A stretch of 64,000 nt of DNA from a virus (taxonomy: Duplodnaviria; Caudoviricetes): positions 352,001 to 416,000 of the IMG/VR virus record IMGVR_UViG_3300035208_004923, one strand, 5' to 3'. Of the stretch, positions 10,366 to 44,388 are shown one piece after another; position 1 is the first letter of the stretch, and every line of letters begins with the position of its first letter. The notes below the pieces were generated by a model. It was given only the letters and a program-made list of their open reading frames with translations, searched no databases and had not been told where the DNA came from. A program made the translations under genes and the position numbers.

Positions 10366-10391
10366 TTATATACACAAAAGGCAGATAGTTT
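10366..10391 (-). promoter_or_regulatory. Class II promoter-like motif
   Basis: AAACT-ATCTGCCTTTT-GTGTATATAA upstream of 10152..10349. Confidence 0.7.
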
Positions 10392-10427
10392 AACTTTGAA
10401 AAGTTTTAAAACTTTGAAAACTTTAAT
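10392..10427 (+). repeat. Four tandem imperfect 9-bp direct repeats, probable operator
   Basis: aactttgaa aagttttaa aactttgaa aactttaat immediately before aatatataaata and the MerR-type gene. Confidence 0.7.
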
Positions 10428-10457
10428 GAATATATAAATAAATTAATACTTATAAAC

Positions 10458-10664
10458 ATGACACTTTACACACCTGCGCAAGTTGCAAAATTATTCGGCG
10501 TATCAACTAACACAATCCGAAACTACGAATCTCAAGGTATTATTCCTAAAAGATTGCCAAGCGGTTATAGGAAATACACAATTCAAAACATCAAGGAACT
10601 TGTGGACCTTTTAGGAATTGACTCCGATGAAATTAAAAAAATTCTAACAGATGAACAAAACTAA
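10458..10664 (+). CDS. MerR-family (IS607 TnpA N-terminal-like) winged-HTH protein
   Basis: YTPAQVAKLFGVSTNTIRNYESQGIIPKRLPSGYRKYT. Confidence 0.85.
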   Translation: MTLYTPAQVAKLFGVSTNTIRNYESQGIIPKRLPSGYRKYTIQNIKELVDLLGIDSDEIKKILTDEQN

Positions 10665-11829
10665 ATACTTTTACGTTTACAAACTTGTACATAAGGAAAC
10701 TGACGAATTTTACATAGGTTCTAGAGTTTGCAATTGTAAACCTGAAAAAGATATAAACTATCTTGGTTCAATGAAAACATGGAAAACCGATAAATCGAAA
10801 CTTTTAAAATCAATTCTTAAAACTGATTTTACTGCGACTGAGGATATGATTGAATTTGAAAGTAAACTTATATCAGAAAACATTAAAAACCCACTAAATC
10901 GAAATTACCACATTCCTAATTTAGGTTTTAGAACACACGGCAAAACTGCAGTTAAAGATAAAGATGGCAATGGGTTTCTTGTTGACGTTAACGACGAAAG
11001 AATACTAACAGGCGAACTTCATCATGCGTGTAAAGGAAAATTTACGGCGCAAGACAGAGATGGAAATACTTTTCAAATTGCAATAAACGATAATATGTTT
11101 TTATCAGGTAACGCTTTCGGTTTAGCGAAAGGGATGCTGCCTGTTAAAGATAAAGATGGCAATACGTTTCAGGTTAATAAAAACGATCCTAGATTTATTT
11201 CAGGCAATGTAACATCAATTTTTAAAGGAAAGGTTGTTGTAATTGATAAAAATAATAATACACTACAAGTAGATACTAACGATCCTAAATATATTTCTGG
11301 GGAATATGTGCATAACACAACAGGAAAGACAACTGTTAAAGATGAAAATGGAAATACGTTCCAAATTAACACAAACGATGAAAGATATGTATCAGGAGAA
11401 CTTCATCATATGAATATTGGTAAAGTTCCTGTTAAAGACAAAGAAGGCAATAGCTTTCAAGTTGCTAAAAATGATCCTCGACTTTTATCTGGTGAATTAC
11501 AGCATGTTACAAAAGGTGCCAACATCGGTAAATGTATCGTTAAAGATGCAAATGGCAAAATATATCGTGTAGATCGTACAGATCCTCGGTTCATATCAGG
11601 CGAACTTGTGCATATTGCAGCAGGAAGAATTACTGTAAAGGACAAAGAGGGTAATACATTCCAAGTTGATAAAAACGATCCTAGATATTTATCAGGCGAA
11701 TTAATCAGTATTAACGCGGGTATGGCGTGGGGAACTGGAAAAGATAATACGCCTATCAGAACAAAAATCGATGATCCAAGATTTAAAACTGGAGAATTAC
11801 AGCGAGGTCGAAAATACAGAATACGTTAG
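10651..11829 (+). CDS. GIY-YIG-like (Seg-type) endonuclease with nine 32-aa tandem repeats
   Basis: YVYKLVHKETDEFYIGSR...YLGS...E...N nuclease motifs; repeats GxxxVKDxxGNxxxVxxNDPRYxSGELxxxxx. Confidence 0.8.
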   Translation: MNKTKYFYVYKLVHKETDEFYIGSRVCNCKPEKDINYLGSMKTWKTDKSKLLKSILKTDFTATEDMIEFESKLISENIKNPLNRNYHIPNLGFRTHGKTAVKDKDGNGFLVDVNDERILTGELHHACKGKFTAQDRDGNTFQIAINDNMFLSGNAFGLAKGMLPVKDKDGNTFQVNKNDPRFISGNVTSIFKGKVVVIDKNNNTLQVDTNDPKYISGEYVHNTTGKTTVKDENGNTFQINTNDERYVSGELHHMNIGKVPVKDKEGNSFQVAKNDPRLLSGELQHVTKGANIGKCIVKDANGKIYRVDRTDPRFISGELVHIAAGRITVKDKEGNTFQVDKNDPRYLSGELISINAGMAWGTGKDNTPIRTKIDDPRFKTGELQRGRKYRIR

Positions 11830-12390
11830 TCACGTTTATTGTAAACCGTAAACTCTTCTTCAGGAACGAATACCAATTCGTTTTTAGCACGAGTACATGC
11901 GACGTAGTCTATGTTGCGTTCTTGCTGTATGTCCATATCCTTTTTCGCCCATGGTGCTTGTAGGATTTTTGGTTCAATGATAAATACTTTGTGCGATTCT
12001 AAACCTTTAACTTTATGAATTGTTGAACAACAAATTCCTGCTTTATTATCAGCAAAGATTGCAGCAATCAATGATGTTAATTCAGAAACCTTACTTAAAC
12101 GTTTTGAATCTGTAAGAATTTCCATTACTTGAATTTTTTCTTCGAAATTTCTGTACGATGTTGTGTTTGTTGCCTCTTCAGGTGTCATTCCTAAGCCCAT
12201 CAATTTAACTCTAATTTTTGAAAGGTCACCGTAAAGTGTTGAAATTGCACCTTTAATAGTTGGGCGTTTTGTTTTCTCCAACATTGTGATTAAGTTTTTT
12301 CCTATATCAGAACCTTTAACGTATGCTTTTTTATGTTGAGCAATAAATTTCATACAAAGGGTAACAAGTGGACGAGTTGTACGGCAAAGA
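11826..12390 (-). pseudogene. C-terminal half of a UvrD/Rep superfamily 1 helicase; N-terminal ATPase half absent
   Basis: STIHKVKGLESHKVFII and ERNIDYVACTRAKNEL motifs; reading frame extends upstream as LCRTTRPLVTLCM to about 12390, then switches into unrelated sequence; no Walker A. Confidence 0.75.
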
Positions 12391-12392
12391 AA

Positions 12393-13235
12393 ATGAAAGC
12401 ACCGATAATTAAAATTTGTCCTTTTTGCTTAATTGAATTTATTGCAAAACGAACAAAGTCAGTTTTTTGTTGTAGATCGCATGCGCAAACATATGCAGCA
12501 AACAAACCCGAACGTATTGCATTAAGTTCTTTAAATGCAAAAGCTAGATGGACGGATGCTACATTCAGAAATCATATGTTAGAAGAAATTAAAAATTTTG
12601 CATCATCTGCGGAATTCAAAGAAAAACAGTCGGTTGTTCAAAAGGAAAGACAATCTCATCAATCGGTAAAAGCGGAAATTAGCAAACGTTCCAAAGAACA
12701 ATGGGCAAGACAAGAAACGAAGGAAAAACAATCTGCATCGCAAAAAATTGCGCAAAATAAGTCAGACGTTAAAGAAAATAAGTCACACAAACTTAAGCAA
12801 ATAACAAATGAATGGCACTGGCGTAAAAGACAATCCCAAAATATGTTAAATTTATGGAAAAATGCAGATTATGCAGAACGTGTATTTGCTGGAAATAAAG
12901 CAGCAATGTATAAACGTTACGATTTTATATTGCCATCTGGCACAATAGTAAAGTTGCAAGGATATGAACCTCGCGCATTGCGTGAACTGTTAGAAACTTA
13001 TCATGAATCAGATATAGTAATCGGCGTTAAAGAAATGAATTCCGTCATAGGAACAATTTCGTATTTGTTTGAAAGTAAAGAAAGAACATATTATCCAGAT
13101 TTTTATATAAAGTCAACTAATACAATAATAGAAGTTAAAAGCACGTGGACGTTTGAATCGGAAAAGGAAAAAAATATAGCAAAAGAACAAAGTTGTTTAT
13201 CAAAAGGATTTGCTTTTAAATTTATTATTTATTAA
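12393..13235 (+). CDS. PD-(D/E)XK-type homing endonuclease with N-terminal Zn finger and helical repeats
   Basis: Likely start MKAPIIKICPFC at 12393; CPFC...FCCRSH; C-terminal QGYEP...YYPDFYIKSTNTIIEVKS. Confidence 0.75.
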   Translation: MKAPIIKICPFCLIEFIAKRTKSVFCCRSHAQTYAANKPERIALSSLNAKARWTDATFRNHMLEEIKNFASSAEFKEKQSVVQKERQSHQSVKAEISKRSKEQWARQETKEKQSASQKIAQNKSDVKENKSHKLKQITNEWHWRKRQSQNMLNLWKNADYAERVFAGNKAAMYKRYDFILPSGTIVKLQGYEPRALRELLETYHESDIVIGVKEMNSVIGTISYLFESKERTYYPDFYIKSTNTIIEVKSTWTFESEKEKNIAKEQSCLSKGFAFKFIIY

Positions 13236-13920
13236 ATCGTGCAAATGCCTTCTCTGTTATAAATATTTTTCTCGACTTTTTAAATTCTAACAAATTCTTA
13301 GACGAAGTATAGCTCATTGCACTTGACAGATAATGTTTAAAATTTTCAACCCAACCGTCAATTGTGTATTCAACAGGATTCATTCTTGTAATTCCTTCCG
13401 ACGTTTTTATTACGTCAGCGCCTAAAGATTTTTGTGCACCTTTAGTACTCATTCCTCTAAATTTTTTGAAAAATTGAGTTCCGTAATTAAATGCAATTTC
13501 TGTTTCCTCTGCATATTGATTCACCTTTTCACCTGGTTCAGTCCAGCCATCGTTCTTTTTATTTTGTTTGTATGTATCGCCACAACTTTCCAATGCTTTA
13601 TTGAAAATTGAACCAATCATACAAAAATCAGCACCTAACGCAAGTGCTTTAAGTATATCTGAGTAACTTTTAAATCCACCATCTGCAATTATTTTTGCAG
13701 GTTTTTCTAATCTTAAAGACATTTCATAGCATTCAGAAATAAGTGATGCCATTGGATAACCTATTCCTGTTTGAACAGTTGTAAGACACCCGCTGTTATG
13801 AACAATAATTCCGTTTATATTATATGAATGATCTGTTTCTATACATAAATCATGTACTGTACCTTCGTAATATTCAACACTTTTTTTTATTTCTATTAAA
13901 TTAAAACTTCGTTTTCCCAT
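13225..13920 (-). CDS. Split intein C-fragment (42 aa) fused to C-terminal half of IMPDH/GMP reductase
   Basis: VHDLCIETDHSYNINGIIVHN/S then SGCLTTVQTGIGYP, IIADGG, KALALGADFCMIGS, FRGMS, SEGI. Confidence 0.92.
   Translation of the reverse strand: MGKRSFNLIEIKKSVEYYEGTVHDLCIETDHSYNINGIIVHNSGCLTTVQTGIGYPMASLISECYEMSLRLEKPAKIIADGGFKSYSDILKALALGADFCMIGSIFNKALESCGDTYKQNKKNDGWTEPGEKVNQYAEETEIAFNYGTQFFKKFRGMSTKGAQKSLGADVIKTSEGITRMNPVEYTIDGWVENFKHYLSSAMSYTSSKNLLEFKKSRKIFITEKAFARFNK
13795..13920 (-). mobile_element. Split intein C-fragment (IntC)
   Basis: Block F/G motifs ending His-Asn followed by +1 Ser. Confidence 0.9.
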
Positions 13921-15008
13921 GATTTTATTCTTTTAAATTCGCATTTTAGATATGTTCGTATTTCTTCTTCTCGTATTTTATCTTTCTCTCGTAAGTTCCC
14001 ATTTCTATCAAAATGATATGGCTCATCATATTCATATACAATATTATTTATTTCATCATAGCCATCAACAAAATAACCTAAATCTTTAATATGATATTCG
14101 CCGCCGTTCAATGCATGACATATTTGCGTATTTGTCTTTTTTGCAAGTTTATCAAAATACGTGCAGCCATTTACATTAAAATTGGGTTGATGAATACAAC
14201 CGTTTGGAAAATACATTGCAATACGTTTAAGCATTGTAACTCTAAGATTTCTTCTATGTTCTGTTGAAAATTCGCGGCCTTTTAATGATTCTGATATTTT
14301 ATCTAAAATGTCATTCCATTTATCTGTTTCTTTTAACTTTCGTATCGCGTTTTTCATATTTTGTTTGTATGCTTCAAACTTTATATCTGCCACTTCTTTC
14401 CCATATTTTTCTTCCCACACAGAATAAACAGATTTACCAAACATTGGATTATTATCGCATGAACTCGCAAACTGTTGTCTCACTTTGTACGCTTCAAACT
14501 TTATATCTGCCACTTCTTTCCCATATTTTTCTTCCCATACAGAATAAACAGATTTACCAAACATTGGATTATTTTCGCCATCGTATTTTCCTTTCATCCC
14601 ATCAGACCTATGTTTTTTCATTTCTGGAGAATGCCGTTTATTATAAAACGGATTATTTTCGCCGATAAAATTTTCTTTGATATGATTATCCCACATCGAA
14701 TTGCCTGTTTCTTCACCATACTTTCCAATCCATATTGTCTTCAAAGATTTTTCAAACATTGGATTATTTTCGCCTTTAATTCTGCATTTTCTACATAGAA
14801 AGATTTTATCCAATTTTGGCCGTGATCTTTGAACAGTTTCATGTCCGCAATCGCTGCATATAATTTTATTGAATTTCATATTTGCTTCCTTTGCACGCAT
14901 TTCATTGCCATCAATAAACTTAAATACAAAACAATTTTTATTTTTTAATTCATACGCAATAACTTGAACGTCATCAATATAAAATGTCGGTATTATTTTT
15001 GTTTCCAT
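13896..15008 (-). CDS. Free-standing homing endonuclease (Vsr-like/EDxHD-type C-terminus, NUMOD-like GENNPMFGK repeats) between split intein halves
   Basis: CSDC...CRKC, four NNP[MF][FY] repeats, GREFSTEHRRNL, YFVDGYDEINNIVYEYDEPYH. Confidence 0.8.
   Translation of the reverse strand: METKIIPTFYIDDVQVIAYELKNKNCFVFKFIDGNEMRAKEANMKFNKIICSDCGHETVQRSRPKLDKIFLCRKCRIKGENNPMFEKSLKTIWIGKYGEETGNSMWDNHIKENFIGENNPFYNKRHSPEMKKHRSDGMKGKYDGENNPMFGKSVYSVWEEKYGKEVADIKFEAYKVRQQFASSCDNNPMFGKSVYSVWEEKYGKEVADIKFEAYKQNMKNAIRKLKETDKWNDILDKISESLKGREFSTEHRRNLRVTMLKRIAMYFPNGCIHQPNFNVNGCTYFDKLAKKTNTQICHALNGGEYHIKDLGYFVDGYDEINNIVYEYDEPYHFDRNGNLREKDKIREEEIRTYLKCEFKRIKSWENEVLI
14364..14573. repeat. Near-identical about 90-bp direct repeat with 120-bp period inside endonuclease gene
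   Basis: NNPMFGKSVYSVWEEKYGKEVADIKFEAYK encoded twice with almost identical DNA. Confidence 0.9.
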
Positions 15009-15069
15009 TTCTTGTTTATTTTATATATAAAGAATATGAAATGCAAATTATACAAGAATTGGAGTTGGG

Positions 15070-15885
15070 CTAATATTGAATCAATAAATGTGTGTTTTCA
15101 TCCAAATCAACAGCAGATATCCATTTTGCATATGCTGATATGTTATCATCATCGACTATATCTTTATACTTTTTGTCAATAACGTAGTATTCATGATTCA
15201 TTGTTGAACCTTCACCATTAATAAATATTATGTCTTCTTCTTTATTATATGTATATGTTTCTATTACTTTTTGCCATATGTTTGTGTGTGTTAAGACATA
15301 ATCACCAACTTTAACATCTTCTATATTTTTCAATCCTGTTTTTGTCAAAACTTTTGTTCCTCTGATGAAACAGCCGCCTCCAATACCGCAACGAATTGCA
15401 TCGGCGCCAGCAATTGATAAATCCCAATACGTTTCTGGATTAGCAATATTACCTACCATAAGATACAATTTTGTTCCGTATTTTCTTTTTGCTGCACCGA
15501 TAGCGGATGACAAACTTGCCATGTGTCCATTAGCAATATCAATAAGTACATAATACGTTCTATCATTACCTAAGATTAATTTAGATAATGTTGAATCTTT
15601 TAAAAACAAATCAGTAAATTGCGTTAAACTGTATGATTTAAAAATTTTTGCAAAATCGCTGTAATCTTGAGACCTTGCATCTTGTACTCTTGGAAATACT
15701 GCATATATGTTATTATTCAAAAAATATTCATAGTTATCATTATTAATAACAGTATCCATTGGTGCTGTCATAATTGGTAACATGCCATCATCATTAAACA
15801 AATTGCATTCGCTTCTTGATGAAATTTCCGTCGATACGGATGGGACGATAAGAATATCGTCAAAATCAAATTTTCTTTCTATCAT
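15070..15885 (-). CDS. N-terminal half of IMPDH/GMP reductase fused to split intein N-fragment (100 aa)
   Basis: Likely start MIERKFDFDDILIVP; PIMTAPMDTV, LIDIANGH, MVGNIA, AGADAIRCGIGGG then CFIRGTKVLTKTGLKNIEDVKVGDYVLT...STMNHEYYV. Confidence 0.92.
   Translation of the reverse strand: MIERKFDFDDILIVPSVSTEISSRSECNLFNDDGMLPIMTAPMDTVINNDNYEYFLNNNIYAVFPRVQDARSQDYSDFAKIFKSYSLTQFTDLFLKDSTLSKLILGNDRTYYVLIDIANGHMASLSSAIGAAKRKYGTKLYLMVGNIANPETYWDLSIAGADAIRCGIGGGCFIRGTKVLTKTGLKNIEDVKVGDYVLTHTNIWQKVIETYTYNKEEDIIFINGEGSTMNHEYYVIDKKYKDIVDDDNISAYAKWISAVDLDENTHLLIQY
15073..15372 (-). mobile_element. Split intein N-fragment (IntN)
   Basis: Block A Cys1 (CFIRGTKV) and block B TxxH (TMNH), then stop codon. 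Confidence 0.9.
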
Positions 15886-16123
15886 CTTTTCCTTTTTTAA
15901 GTGCTTTTTCGATTCCGTCGCATATTGCAACAAAATCTGGGTTTAACGATTGTCTTAAATATACGCCTGTGCCTTGTAATGAAGTTTCGGCATAACACTC
16001 AACAAGTTCGATAATTCTATTCTGAATTTCTTTTTTATTGTGTTTCCAATCAGCGCCTTTTGTTTCTTTTGACATTTCAATCATTTTCATGATTGCTTTT
16101 AGTTCTTTATCAAAATCCATAAA

Positions 16124-17071
16124 TTAATGTTTTAGTTTACAATTATCAAAATGAAATAATTTAAAATTACTTTTTCCAGATTTTCCACAATGCGGGCATT
16201 CGTACACTGGTCTATATTGGTTTTTTGCAATTTCCCGTTTCTTTTTACGAAATGCTTCACGTTCTTCTTCTGTCATCTTTGCAAAATATGCTTTACTAGT
16301 TTCGCGTAATTTTTCACGCCGTTTCTGTTTATCATCTTCGGACTTTGCATCAATTGTTTGTTTGAATTTTGCTGTGCGTTCTTTAAGTTTATCTTCTGAC
16401 ATATTCAATACACGTTCGCTAGCATCTTTGCGGATTTTTTCTTTATGTTCATCAGTTAAATTATTAAACGCATTCCGTAAATTCTCTTTTTTCAATTCTC
16501 TTTCATCGTCTGTTAAATTACGCCATTGTTGTCTTACATTTTCTTTGCAATTTTCTTTCTGTTCGTTTGTCATGTTAGACATTCCTTGCTTTACCGCATT
16601 TGCAATATTTTGTCTTTCATCTTGCGACAATTTTGACCATCTTTTCTGCATTCCAAGAGAATGCTTTTGCTTTTGTTCTTCCGCAATAATATCAGATTTA
16701 TAAATCTCGGCGTATGTTTTTCCTTTTAATGCATCAGATAATTTTGTTCGTGTTTCCGCAGTAGGACTATAATCCAGTATCAATTTACCGCCGCCAGTGA
16801 TTAAATTCATACATAATGGCTCATTTATTAAAGTGATTGTTACAATTTCTTTTTCTCTTAAAACAACAGATGCTCTATCTTTGCAATATTCTAAAATTTC
16901 AGTTTTAAAATTGTTACGTCCATACTTTTGTATTGAACGCCACAAATATAATCCCGAACCAATGTAACCATCATTCAAATCAAAAGTAGAATGCATACCG
17001 ATATAAAACTTATTATTTATAAGATTTGTTGTTTTATAAATATAATGATACGTGTGAGGTTTCCTTGCCAT
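16124..17071 (-). CDS. GIY-YIG (Seg-like) homing endonuclease with helical repeats and C-terminal CPHC Zn module
   Basis: YIYKTTNLINNKFYIGMH...YIGSG...NLITGG; CPHCGKSG...FHFDNCK. Confidence 0.85.
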   Translation of the reverse strand: MARKPHTYHYIYKTTNLINNKFYIGMHSTFDLNDGYIGSGLYLWRSIQKYGRNNFKTEILEYCKDRASVVLREKEIVTITLINEPLCMNLITGGGKLILDYSPTAETRTKLSDALKGKTYAEIYKSDIIAEEQKQKHSLGMQKRWSKLSQDERQNIANAVKQGMSNMTNEQKENCKENVRQQWRNLTDDERELKKENLRNAFNNLTDEHKEKIRKDASERVLNMSEDKLKERTAKFKQTIDAKSEDDKQKRREKLRETSKAYFAKMTEEEREAFRKKKREIAKNQYRPVYECPHCGKSGKSNFKLFHFDNCKLKH

Positions 17072-30676: not shown

Positions 30677-30702
30677 TTATATACACAATGAAGGAAAAGT
30701 TT
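30677..30702 (-). promoter_or_regulatory. Class II promoter-like motif (implies true start MENDELEF at 30660)
   Basis: AAACT-TTTCCTTCATT-GTGTATATAA. Confidence 0.7.
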
Positions 30703-31297
30703 TACTATACAGCCATTCAGAAACAATTCTTTCGCAAAAAGTACCTCTTACTTCTTCACGTTCAGGATGCCATTGAACAAGCATACAATTATCGCCTGCC
30801 CACGCCATTTCTATAATGCCATCATCTGATTTTGCAACAGGATGGATATCTTGTCCCAATGTTTTTATTGCTTGATGATGTCTTGAATTAACTTCAGCTT
30901 GCATTCCATTGATTGCAATAAAATGCCAACTTGATTCTAAAGATGGCAGTGGCTCATTTGCAATTGCAACTGCATTTGCCGAATGATTTATTTTTGTTTG
31001 CGTTTCATTTAAAATGTCACCGTATAAAGTGCCGCCTAATGCAACATTTACTAATTGTAAACCACGGCAGATACCAAGAACTGGGATATTTCCGTATGCT
31101 GAACCAAACCATTTTGTTTCTCTTAAATCTCGTTCAAAATTTTTACCAATATCAGCTCCACCACAAAGTAATAACATGCTAAATTTATCGGTTATGAGTT
31201 CATCTTCGTTAAGTACATGGTATTTCAATTGACGGTATTCAAGCCATTCTAAATAATTATTTAGTTGATTCTTATGTGGCGGTGCAACTGCTATCAT
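30677..31297 (-). CDS. Class I glutamine amidotransferase-like / peptidase C26
   Basis: LLLCGGADI, PVLGICRGLQ, VNSRHHQAIK, VQWHPE triad. Confidence 0.9.
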   Translation of the reverse strand: MIAVAPPHKNQLNNYLEWLEYRQLKYHVLNEDELITDKFSMLLLCGGADIGKNFERDLRETKWFGSAYGNIPVLGICRGLQLVNVALGGTLYGDILNETQTKINHSANAVAIANEPLPSLESSWHFIAINGMQAEVNSRHHQAIKTLGQDIHPVAKSDDGIIEMAWAGDNCMLVQWHPEREEVRGTFCERIVSEWLYSKTFPSLCI

Positions 31298-31313: not shown

Positions 31314-32186
31314 TTAATTACGTTTTCTTTTTTTTGCTGATTCGCGCATTTTTTGTTTCGTTTCGTCTGTTCGTTTTTGACCTCTCCTAGATTCTGCTGC
31401 TTTGTCTATAGATTCTTGCTTTTGTCTTACACCTCTTGTTATACCTACCAATTCACCTGATAAATATCTGGGGTCATCTCGTAAAACTTTGTATGTTTTA
31501 CCTGATGCGTCTTTAACCATTACCATTCCCTTTGATATGTTTACCAATTCCCCCGATAAATATCTAGGATCGTTTTTATCAACTTGTAATGTACAGCCAT
31601 TGGCATCTTTAACAGTTACTCTTCCTTTAGCAATACCCACCAATTCGCCAGATAAATATCTTACGTCGTCAGGTAATACAGAAAAATAATTGCCATTTGC
31701 ATCTTTAACACTTATACGTCCTTTAAACATGTGAATTAATTCACCAGATACATATCTTGGATCATTTTTATCAACCATATGATAATTATTATCTGAATCT
31801 AATGTTGGCACAATGCCTTTTGTTACGCCAACAAAATTCCCAGATAAATACAGTTCGCTGTCTTTACGTAATAACTTCACATTTCCGTTAGCATCCTTTA
31901 GTGATGCTGCACCTGTTGTGTGAAAGCCAACAGATGGAATATGATAGTTTTCATTTAAAGGATCTTCAATCCATTTTGAAATTTCTTCAGTTTCAAACTT
32001 AATAGCATCTTCTCTACAAATAAAGTCATCTTTAATAATTTCCTTTTTTAGTTTTGTTTTGTTAGGTTTCCAAGTTTTCATTGAACCTAAATAAGAATCT
32101 AGAGTAGGATGAACTTCTGAACTTCTGGAACCTATATAGAATTGTTTAGTTTCTATATGTTCAATTCGATATACATAATGATACAT
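31314..32186 (-). CDS. GIY-YIG-like endonuclease with five 32-aa repeats and NUMOD3-like tail
   Basis: YVYRIEHIETKQFYIGSR...YLGSMKTWK; DPRYLSGEL repeats; GQKRTDETKQKMRES. Confidence 0.8.
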   Translation of the reverse strand: MYHYVYRIEHIETKQFYIGSRSSEVHPTLDSYLGSMKTWKPNKTKLKKEIIKDDFICREDAIKFETEEISKWIEDPLNENYHIPSVGFHTTGAASLKDANGNVKLLRKDSELYLSGNFVGVTKGIVPTLDSDNNYHMVDKNDPRYVSGELIHMFKGRISVKDANGNYFSVLPDDVRYLSGELVGIAKGRVTVKDANGCTLQVDKNDPRYLSGELVNISKGMVMVKDASGKTYKVLRDDPRYLSGELVGITRGVRQKQESIDKAAESRRGQKRTDETKQKMRESAKKRKRN

Positions 32187-32229
32187 ACATTTAAATATTT
32201 TTAATTATTTATATTATATATCAAAATTG

Positions 32230-32269
32230 ATATAGGAATAAATTAAAGTTTAATATAGGAATAAATTAA
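32230..32269. repeat. 17-bp direct repeat (atataggaataaattaa) x2 at the endonuclease 5' boundary
   Basis: Copies at 32230-32246 and 32253-32269. Confidence 0.85.
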
Positions 32270-32368
32270 GTCTGTCGATTCTAAGATATGATATTTTAAA
32301 CCTAAAGAATCAAGCCAACCTGTATAATTTGGCATTTGGTTTGGATGTGCAGGTGCAAGTGCTATCAT
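32243..32368 (-). pseudogene. Orphaned 5' fragment of the glutamine amidotransferase gene
   Basis: MIALAPAHPNQMPNYTGWLDSLGLKYHILESTDLI aligns with MIAVAPPHKNQLNNYLEWLEYRQLKYHVLNEDELI; ATGA-coupled to upstream gene. Confidence 0.8.
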
Positions 32369-43273: not shown

Positions 43274-44227
43274 TTATTTATATTTTTTACCTTTTCGCCA
43301 GCCATCTGGTATACTTTCACCGTTTTTAATTTTTGTAGCAATATGCAAATCATCATTACAAATCCATTCAGTATTTGCAGTAGTACTTATCAATTCGCCG
43401 GATATGTATCTAGGGTCGTCACGATTAACCCTCATTGATTTGCCATTTATATCTATTACATTAACCATTCCAGTATGCGGAACAATCAATTCACCAGATA
43501 CATATCGTGGATCGTTTGTAGATACTACCATAATAGTGCCATTTGAATCTTTAACAACTACATTTCCTTTATTGGTGCCAACAAGTTCGCCACTTATGTA
43601 TCGTTCGTCATCTGTATCTACTTGCAATGTATTGCCATCTGCATCTTTAACATTCACTTTATTTTTTGCAATTGAAATGTATTCACCGGATGTGTATTTA
43701 GGATCATTTTTTAGTATACTATATCGTTTGCCATTCTTATCTTTAACAACCGCCTTTCCATGTGTCAAACCCATGTAGTCGCCATTTTTGTATTCATCAG
43801 ATTCAATTGATATTCTAACGCATTTGCCTTCTATACCACGAACAACTTTATGTCCTTTATTACATCCAACAAGTTCACCTGATATGTATCTAGGATCATC
43901 AACACTAACTAACATGGTTTTTCCATGCGTATCTTTAACCGTTACCATGCCTAATGTGTGCCAACCTGAATCTGGAATATTATAATTCTCATTTAATTTG
44001 TTATGAATATTTTTACGTATTTCATTAGATTCACATTTTATTGCATCTTCTTTAGATATAAAATCATCTTTAATAATTTCTTTTATCAATTTTGTTTTAT
44101 CAGGTTTCCAAGTTTTCATTGAACCCATATAATTTATGTCTAATGATGGCATAACGTTACAACTTCTTGAACCTATATAGAATTGTCCTGTTTCTATATG
44201 TGTTACTTTGTATACGTAATGATACAT
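43274..44227 (-). CDS. GIY-YIG-like endonuclease with six 32-aa repeats
   Basis: YVYKVTHIETGQFYIGSR...YMGSMKTWK; DPRYISGEL repeats; C-terminal WICND...IPDGWRKG. Confidence 0.8.
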   Translation of the reverse strand: MYHYVYKVTHIETGQFYIGSRSCNVMPSLDINYMGSMKTWKPDKTKLIKEIIKDDFISKEDAIKCESNEIRKNIHNKLNENYNIPDSGWHTLGMVTVKDTHGKTMLVSVDDPRYISGELVGCNKGHKVVRGIEGKCVRISIESDEYKNGDYMGLTHGKAVVKDKNGKRYSILKNDPKYTSGEYISIAKNKVNVKDADGNTLQVDTDDERYISGELVGTNKGNVVVKDSNGTIMVVSTNDPRYVSGELIVPHTGMVNVIDINGKSMRVNRDDPRYISGELISTTANTEWICNDDLHIATKIKNGESIPDGWRKGKKYK

Positions 44228-44388
44228 TACTTTGCAATATTTTTTTCATGATATTCATTAATAAAATTGCGAAATAATACTGACGCGTTTATTCCACTTA
44301 ATTGAATTTCATCCAGTTTTTTTCTGTCATCTGCATTCAATTTCAAAATGAATGTAAAATCGATGTTTTGTTTTTGTAACTTTGGCAT
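44227..44388 (-). CDS. Small ribbon-helix-helix-like protein (53 aa, not in ORF track), TAATG-coupled to endonuclease
   Basis: MPKLQKQNIDFTFILKLNADDRKKLDEIQLSGINASVLFRNFINEYHEKNIAK. Confidence 0.65.
   Translation of the reverse strand: MPKLQKQNIDFTFILKLNADDRKKLDEIQLSGINASVLFRNFINEYHEKNIAK

Follow-up and report, generated by a model that had tools for sequence, protein, structure and literature searches.

Homing endonucleases are the classic nucleases built from interchangeable catalytic and DNA-binding modules, and most of the catalogue of these modules (NUMOD1-4, helix-turn-helix (HTH) domains, zinc fingers, AP2) goes back to the early 2000s. NUMODs were reportedly defined by Sitbon and Pietrokovski in 2003 through an operational pattern, as short modules that follow unrelated nuclease folds and vary in their number and order. 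The DNA analysed here, a 64,000-nucleotide stretch of a phage contig termed C1 (the window; Table 1), contains three paralogous genes whose products join a nuclease head to a tandem array of 32-residue repeats. We think it rather likely that these are free-standing, promoter-bearing homing endonuclease genes of the T4 Seg type, belonging to a phage of about 421 kb, and that the uncatalogued array would serve as their DNA-anchoring arm. What is new is this arm of beta-hairpin repeats, which is widespread and NUMOD-like, whereas the design of the homing nuclease as such is already known.

The three open reading frames (ORFs) carry the head motifs YVY, FYIGSR and Y[LM]GSMKTWK and agree in position and strand with a preliminary description of this DNA. 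Their heads are recognised by PHROG 314 ('homing endonuclease'). An AlphaFold2 model of paralog 2 (m64bd4850c7d4) reached a predicted local distance difference test score (pLDDT) of 37 from the single sequence and of 93, with a predicted template modelling score of 0.61, from an alignment of 73 sequences. In this model the head is predicted to form a three-stranded sheet with helices and a hairpin that carries the GIY and YIG elements, as is characteristic of the GIY-YIG fold. Foldseek and VIA searches against the PDB match the head with PD-T4-3, UvrC, EndoII, Slx1 and Eco29kI, among others, and a search of a viral structure library with the same model returns Seg-like homing endonucleases. 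The 73 aligned homologs all share Y6, Y17, G19 and N80, and at least 90% of them have E65. Moreover, R21 is invariant in a closer subfamily of 17 sequences and presumably corresponds to R27 of I-TevI. On account of the PHROG match, the model, the conserved residues and the matches in the structure library we regard the head as a GIY-YIG homing endonuclease domain of a divergent 'FYIGSR' subtype. For homologs in which this array follows other head subtypes, PF19835 or PF01541 is found at E<=1e-3, in some cases under the Pfam cut-offs.

The repeat was delineated by a hidden Markov model (HMM) built from six units of paralog 1, which finds in-phase 32-residue units in the window proteins with per-unit E values of 1e-8 to 1e-23. 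Counts of nine, five and six copies had been given in the preliminary description and hold once degenerate units are included, as paralog 1 has eight clean repeats and one degenerate, paralog 2 has five and paralog 3 has five clean and one degenerate. The ninth unit of paralog 1 (amino acids 364-387) is matched at E 0.022, and the degenerate unit of paralog 3 (amino acids 125-156), which is in phase but missed by the HMM, was counted by eye from partial matches to the scaffold. The consensus of the unit reads G-k-v-t-V-K-D-k-n-G-N-t-f-q-V-s-k-d-D-P-R-Y-l-S-G-E-L-v-g/h-i-t-K. According to the column entropies of 35 units of this phage and 644 metagenomic units, the scaffold positions 1, 5-7, 10, 15, 19-22, 24-27 and 32 are conserved, and positions 2, 4, 8, 9, 12-14, 16, 17 and 28-31 vary, with about 13 of the 32 columns exceeding 2 bits. 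Thus the claim that positions 2-4, 12-14 and 28-31 are the variable ones stands for 2, 4, 12, 14 and 28-31 (2.3-3.4 bits) but fails for 3 and 13, which are restricted to hydrophobic residues and therefore belong to the core. Units are 31-59% identical to one another, and in none of the three genes does Tandem Repeats Finder report a 96-nt DNA repeat. Since the units have diverged too far to be detected at the DNA level, the arrays are old rather than recent expansions.

This repeat is absent from the domain catalogues. Neither Pfam nor NCBIfam gives a significant match to it, and the only Pfam matches of the region are short beta-hairpin stretches of Cupin_3, Myosin_N and Tectonin. None of the NUMOD1-4 models matches the repeat region at E<=1, so that by sequence it is not a member of these families. 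Sequence searches of the PDB yielded nothing significant, whether the query was the protein itself or a profile of the repeat or of the subfamily. The repeat is described neither in the results of full-text literature searches nor in the phylogenomic study of GIY-YIG nucleases (PMC1564403).

In the model of paralog 2 each unit is predicted to consist of a beta-hairpin (positions ~2-6 and 12-16), a helix of one turn formed by D-P-R-Y and a strand of only the two residues E-L, and this strand-strand-helix-strand pattern recurs regularly with pLDDT values of 97-98 across the array. Because the variable residues alternate in sequence with the conserved hydrophobic positions 3, 5, 13 and 15, positions 2, 4, 12, 14 and 16 would be expected to form a single exposed, variable face of the hairpin. 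The array begins about 10 residues past the catalytic Asn, which suggests that there is little flexible linker between head and array; the pLDDT dips only at residues 81-90. We make no claim of a new fold for the modelled array, which was searched only as part of the whole-protein model. In the ESM Atlas the structural clusters nearest to the array are viral GIY-YIG and HNH proteins, which we take as leads only.

The repeat is not confined to this phage. A word-indexed search found at least 1,821 relatives, and a single-repeat profile (32 columns, derived from 18 units of the window) matched 1,895 of 1.84 billion cluster representatives (50% identity) at E<=1e-3 and 436 at <=1e-30, mostly on large uncultured phage contigs. 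The best 150 of the 1,895 are 150-604 amino acids long, a size usual for homing endonucleases, with up to 12 units, and copy number across the family ranges from 1 to 12. Among 115 top matches Pfam identified SegE_GIY-YIG in 38, GIY-YIG in 17, NUMOD3 in 9 and I-TevI_DNA-bd in 5. In addition, 23 of 235 proteins carry a head of the HNH type with the motif 'E.HHI.PK ... LT.RQH..AH', a type confirmed by matches to PHROG 12434 and 655 in the four HNH-headed proteins that were scanned. The repeats of paralog 1 are matched by phrog_12434 too (4e-52, profile positions 162-225), and its head by phrog_314. Long C-terminal tails contain HTH_7/23/28, I-HmuI NUMOD-like or NUMOD3 modules, and a non-nuclease enzymatic domain was seen in none of the sampled array proteins. 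In about 13-17% of the proteins with four to seven repeats fewer than 25 residues follow the array, which leaves the array as their only non-catalytic part. Proteins with more repeats have shorter tails and fewer NUMOD-like motifs (Spearman -0.29, p 5e-6), a trend that is partly due to length-window bias and is not significant (rho -0.14, p 0.15) in a subset to which the window does not apply. Cultured examples detected by tblastn are NVP2275O_311 of Vibrio phage 2.275.O ('GIY-YIG domain protein') and a 'homing endonuclease' gene of Pseudomonas phage Milchi that adjoins tRNA genes.

These architectures are the main reason for us to read the array as a DNA-binding arm, since like a NUMOD it varies in copy number, follows nuclease heads of two unrelated folds and occurs alongside known DNA-binding modules. 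In line with the preliminary description, the array lies where enzymes of the I-TevI and Seg type carry their modular DNA-binding units, and is mixed with NUMOD3, I-HmuI-NUMOD-like, I-TevI_DNA-bd and HTH modules. Weaker grounds are the near tail-less proteins, the shortening of tails with increasing repeat number and the mild basicity of the array (median +0.67 per repeat, isoelectric point 8.8). Judging from its counterparts in I-TevI, I-BmoI, I-HmuI and the T4 Seg enzymes, then, the array probably binds DNA. Each protein is composed of an N-terminal GIY-YIG domain of about 88 residues, an array of 2-9 repeats and, optionally, NUMOD3-like or 'WI.N...GW.KGR' modules. The array would lay the protein along an extended and probably degenerate target site, the tethered head would cut near the anchored site, and repair from the nuclease-carrying genome would spread the gene. 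Specificity would presumably arise from the sum of many weak contacts made by the modules and not follow a one-repeat-one-base code.

The genomic setting of the genes is that expected of mobile elements. C1 is part of a binned assembly totalling 1.6 Mb, and its first and last 4.6 kb, which lie 420,768 bp apart, overlap with 97.6% identity, so that it looks like a complete genome of about 421 kb, either terminally redundant or circularly assembled. Its content is phage-like and includes 53 tRNA genes. Nine distinct array-bearing paralogs with 1-9 units each are present in the assembly, all of them on C1 (three in the window and six more), and most are preceded at a distance of about 30 nt by a promoter-like box (TTGATATATAA). 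Paralog 2, whose own leader carries the promoter-like box TTGATATATAAT, is flanked on one side by an intact glutamine amidotransferase gene and on the other by the orphaned 5' end of such a gene. The orphan, which reads MIALAPAHPNQMPNY... where the intact gene reads MIAVAPPHKNQLNNY..., is homologous to the first ~35 residues of the latter, and this homology stops at the start of the nuclease leader, at a 17-bp direct repeat (TAATTTATTCCTATAT, in the region 32230-32368). Another paralog (C1 56384-57139) is flanked by two different tRNA-Gly genes (C1 56230-57286) within the 53-tRNA cluster. Judged by sequence, these genes thus show what is typical of free-standing Seg-type genes, namely promoter-like elements of their own, locations between or within unrelated genes, and signs of mobility.

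A mosaic origin is apparent from the comparison of paralog 2 (C1 383314) with the paralog at C1 3768-4562. Their leaders are near-identical, and in 30-nt windows the DNA is mostly 87-100% identical from -80 to about +235, with one poorly aligning window that spans the start codon, before identity drops from 77% to 53% and to about 40% by +300. The arrays themselves differ, as paralog 2 has five units and a basic helix and C1 3768 has two units, NUMOD3 and a 'WIHN' module. Near-identical leaders and heads are thus joined to unrelated arrays, which indicates that heads and arrays recombine as separate modules. Moreover, near-identical pairs of units in homologous arrays point to recent internal duplication. 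Repeat gain, loss and shuffling, which the preliminary description had postulated, are accordingly borne out by the range of copy numbers, the internal duplications and the swaps of arrays relative to heads. The C-terminal caps differ as well, as had been noted. Paralog 1 ends in a degenerate repeat and a basic tail, paralog 2 in a basic helix that includes a NUMOD3-like 'DETKQKMRES', and paralog 3 in a 'W..N...IPDGWRKGKK' module. The leader of paralog 2 has a counterpart at C1 4563-4644, which comes after a tRNA-like 3' end (GGTTCGATTCC).

Paralogs 1 and 3 are each translationally coupled to a gene for a small putative DNA-binding protein. Nearly all genes of the window lie on the minus strand, and in their midst paralog 1 and a MerR-type HTH gene, whose 3' end shares 14 nt with the start of paralog 1, form a two-gene plus-strand cassette. 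The MerR protein may act as an autoregulator of this cassette. Short repeats of the type AACTTTGAAAA precede the MerR gene in the divergent intergenic region (region 10391-10664). The 53-residue ORF upstream of paralog 3 has no Pfam or PHROG match; its strand-helix-helix pattern makes a ribbon-helix-helix protein possible.

Several observations weigh against the reading of these proteins as homing endonucleases with a DNA-anchoring arm. The window heads miss the Pfam threshold, with PF01541 found at E 0.29 and 11.9 bits as compared to a cut-off of 22.6. When the whole-protein model was searched against the PDB with Foldseek and VIA only the head was matched, and the best array-wide matches, to beta-propellers and tandem Tudor domains, were weak (E>=0.046). 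Three of the nine arrays of this phage are neutral or acidic, and the arrays are only weakly basic overall. Targeting or regulation could come from the coupled small proteins instead of the array. Finally, none of the insertion sites turned up as a nuclease-free allele in our searches: when phage records were searched with the locus by megablast there was no match, and a comparison of the neighbouring proteins with IMG/VR revealed no nuclease-free relative. A search with the subfamily alignment found 64 loci, of which five have repeats. One locus belongs to the same phage at 99.99% identity, and a 430-kb relative that has 110 of 1,208 ORFs in common at ~40% identity shows no synteny around the nuclease genes.

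Could the array be something other than a composite DNA-anchoring arm? The preliminary description likened these proteins to a natural TALEN, that is, a nuclease fused to a transcription activator-like effector (TALE) type of array. In such an array each repeat would read a fixed few bases through a few variable residues and specificity would be predictable and rewirable. This likeness is not supported, because identity between units is as low as 31-59%, variation affects about 13 of the 32 positions and a tandem repeat is not detected at the DNA level; the near-identical repeats with one or two specificity residues that define TALE arrays are not what is found here, and the modelled fold is beta rather than a helical solenoid. 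It is true that copy number ranges from 1 to 12, that arrays are swapped relative to heads, and that variable residues alternate with buried hydrophobics on both strands (2, 4 and 12, 14, 16), as would be expected for one exposed face. Arrays also diverge much faster than heads, for among 16 orthologs with four repeats each identity amounts to 71% in the heads and 65% at the scaffold positions of the repeats, as compared to 30% at the variable positions. The latter value, however, applies to units at the same repeat index and is close to the 22.5% between units at different indices, which fits relaxed surface constraint just as well as rapid retargeting. After recent duplications positions 4 and 31 differ above background in all three analysis frames. 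A wider accumulation of differences at positions 28-32 and 1-4 turned out to be partly a frame-edge artefact, and only 4 and 31 remained after re-framing. All in all, we consider a TALE-like code improbable. We give equally little credence to the related idea that the unit is a structurally distinct modular DNA reader that contacts a fixed few base pairs through the face formed by 2, 4, 12, 14 and 16 and/or the junction 29-31, is retargeted by duplication and swapping, and follows a code that could be learned and engineered.

Alternatively, the array may not be a specificity element at all. It might act as a semi-rigid ruler or spacer, clamp the DNA backbone non-specifically or serve as a scaffold for protein interactions, and the site would be chosen by NUMOD-type tails or by the upstream HTH or ribbon-helix-helix protein. 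The linker of I-TevI, a distance-setting element, provides a precedent. A distance-setting role has likewise been described for the linker of I-BmoI (PMC3664794). Members with few repeats mostly carry NUMOD3-like or 'WI.N..GW.KGR' tails, and tails are strongly basic (median charge +6 as opposed to +0.67 per repeat); in addition, the MerR HTH gene and the gene for the possible ribbon-helix-helix protein overlap the starts of paralogs 1 and 3. Yet array-only proteins exist, as exemplified by the 13-17% of homologs mentioned above and by the member at C1 291839-292750, which has a tail of two residues and lacks a coupled upstream ORF. The existence of such tail-less and partner-less members disfavours a spacer or clamp as a general rule, nor should a spacer require as many as 9-12 conserved units in which K, R and Y positions are invariant. 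We therefore regard this alternative as unlikely. A role unrelated to homing, in which the proteins would be phage nucleases directed at host or competitor DNA (EndoII-like, or acting in defence or counter-defence) and the array would sense modified DNA or some other feature, appears very improbable. T4 EndoII and the 5-hydroxymethylcytosine-specific PD-T4-3, both GIY-YIG enzymes, are among the structural matches, and nine copies are many for one genome. But promoter-like leaders precede most copies, the copies are located within or between genes unrelated to them as well as in the tRNA cluster, and all accessory modules found are those of homing endonucleases. The orphaned gene fragment and the mosaicism of heads and arrays, moreover, are hallmarks of mobile Seg-type genes, and it is these insertion scars and this mosaicism that make an anti-host or defence role less likely.

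Table 1. Location of the window, the three paralogs, and associated and neighbouring genes (window coordinates unless marked C1)
Feature	Position	Strand	Length or residues	Description
Window	C1 352001-416000			contig C1 has 425,361 bp, 31% GC
MerR-type HTH gene	10458..10664	+	68 aa	Pfam MerR 7e-14
Paralog 1	10651..11829	+	392 aa	
Paralog 1, head	10651-10938	+	aa 1-96	
Paralog 1, array	10939-11718	+	aa 97-356	eight clean repeats, 4-aa insert after repeat six
Paralog 1, C-terminus		+	aa 357-392	degenerate ninth repeat and basic tail
UvrD_C / UvrD_C_2 fragment	11826-12353	-	175 aa	
DUF7487 / TnsA-like gene	12333-13235	+	300 aa	
IMPDH/GMP-reductase-like locus	13225-15933	-		three ORFs
IMPDH-like ORF c	13225-13920	-		intein C-end 'VHN|SGC' and C-extein
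IMPDH-like ORF b	13896-15008	-	370 aa	NUMOD3 endonuclease
IMPDH-like ORF a	15070-15933	-		N-extein and Hint N-part
Possibly homing-endonuclease-related gene	16124-17071	-	315 aa	
Glutamine amidotransferase gene, intact	30677-31297			
Paralog 2	31314..32186	-	290 aa	
Paralog 2, head	31914-32186	-	aa 1-91	
Paralog 2, array	31434-31913	-	aa 92-251	five repeats
Paralog 2, tail		-	aa 252-290	basic, helical, NUMOD3-like motif
Paralog 2, leader	32187..32264	-	78 nt	promoter-like box TTGATATATAAT
Glutamine amidotransferase 5' end, orphaned	32243..32368	-	41 codons	Peptidase_C26/GATase
Paralog 3	43274..44227	-	317 aa	
Paralog 3, head	43952-44227	-	aa 1-92	
Paralog 3, array	43376-43951	-	aa 93-284	six repeats, one degenerate
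Paralog 3, C-terminal module		-	aa 285-317	'W..N...IPDGWRKGKK'
53-aa ORF	44227..44388	-	53 aa	stop codon overlaps ATG of paralog 3

Further genes, some of them selfish-looking, are found next to paralog 1. An IMPDH/GMP-reductase-like gene is split over three ORFs on the same strand and looks like a 'fractured gene', with split-intein halves around a free-standing endonuclease gene, comparable to the case described in PMC2677866. An orphan fragment corresponding to the C-terminus of a UvrD-type helicase is convergent with paralog 1 and overlaps its stop codon by 4 nt; a matching N-terminal helicase half was not found nearby on C1. Between this fragment and the split IMPDH-like gene lies the gene for the DUF7487 / TnsA-like endonuclease, one more selfish-looking nuclease in this 5-kb hotspot. 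The 315-residue protein encoded farther along has weak matches to NUMOD3, HTH_38 and DUF3106 and is possibly related to homing endonucleases.

The family appears to add to the known modules an all-beta one that occurs in long regular arrays and has been recruited by both GIY-YIG and HNH heads. If the array binds DNA, it illustrates the way in which giant phages generate diversity among their selfish nucleases, and annotators gain a name for a region that is now mislabelled 'cupin' or 'myosin SH3-like'. If the units were individually specific they would offer a new scaffold for programmable DNA recognition, which on present evidence is the less likely outcome.

How, then, do these proteins compare with those already described? 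The same repeat is present in phrog_12434 ('HNH endonuclease') and in the genes of Vibrio phage 2.275.O and Milchi, all of which have been named by their nuclease head only, of the HNH type in phrog_12434, while the repeat has gone unnamed. With TALE proteins, including BurrH and MOrTL, they have in common tandem units of similar size (32 as compared to 33-35 residues), variable in number and of roughly neutral charge, and an attached nuclease, which is natural here and engineered in TALENs. They differ from them in having a predicted beta fold instead of a two-helix solenoid, units of 31-59% identity instead of near-identical ones, and about 13 rather than two variable positions per unit. I-TevI and I-BmoI (PDB 1ln0 and 1mk0) likewise tether a catalytic head to an extended DNA-binding region, as is predicted here. 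The window genes, however, are not intron-encoded, and their products have little flexible linker and neither a zinc-finger linker nor a minor-groove helix. The repeat conforms to the operational pattern of the NUMODs, such as those of I-HmuI, as it stands behind GIY-YIG and HNH heads in 1-12 copies and is mixed with NUMOD3, I-HmuI-like, I-TevI_DNA-bd and HTH modules; yet it has no sequence match to NUMOD1-4, is predicted to be a beta-hairpin rather than helical, and forms regular arrays of up to 12 units. Finally, the window heads of the FYIGSR type fall short of the Pfam thresholds and in this differ from the T4 SegA-G proteins (PF19835, SegE_GIY-YIG), a Pfam family that many homologs with the same repeat do match. 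Like the T4 Seg enzymes, the proteins described here combine an N-terminal GIY-YIG head with a modular C-terminal arm and are encoded by free-standing genes with apparent promoters of their own between phage genes, one copy lying in a tRNA cluster as does SegB. Different from the Seg enzymes, this arm is built from tandem 32-residue units, predicted to be beta-hairpins, and not solely from NUMOD1/3 helices and HTHs.

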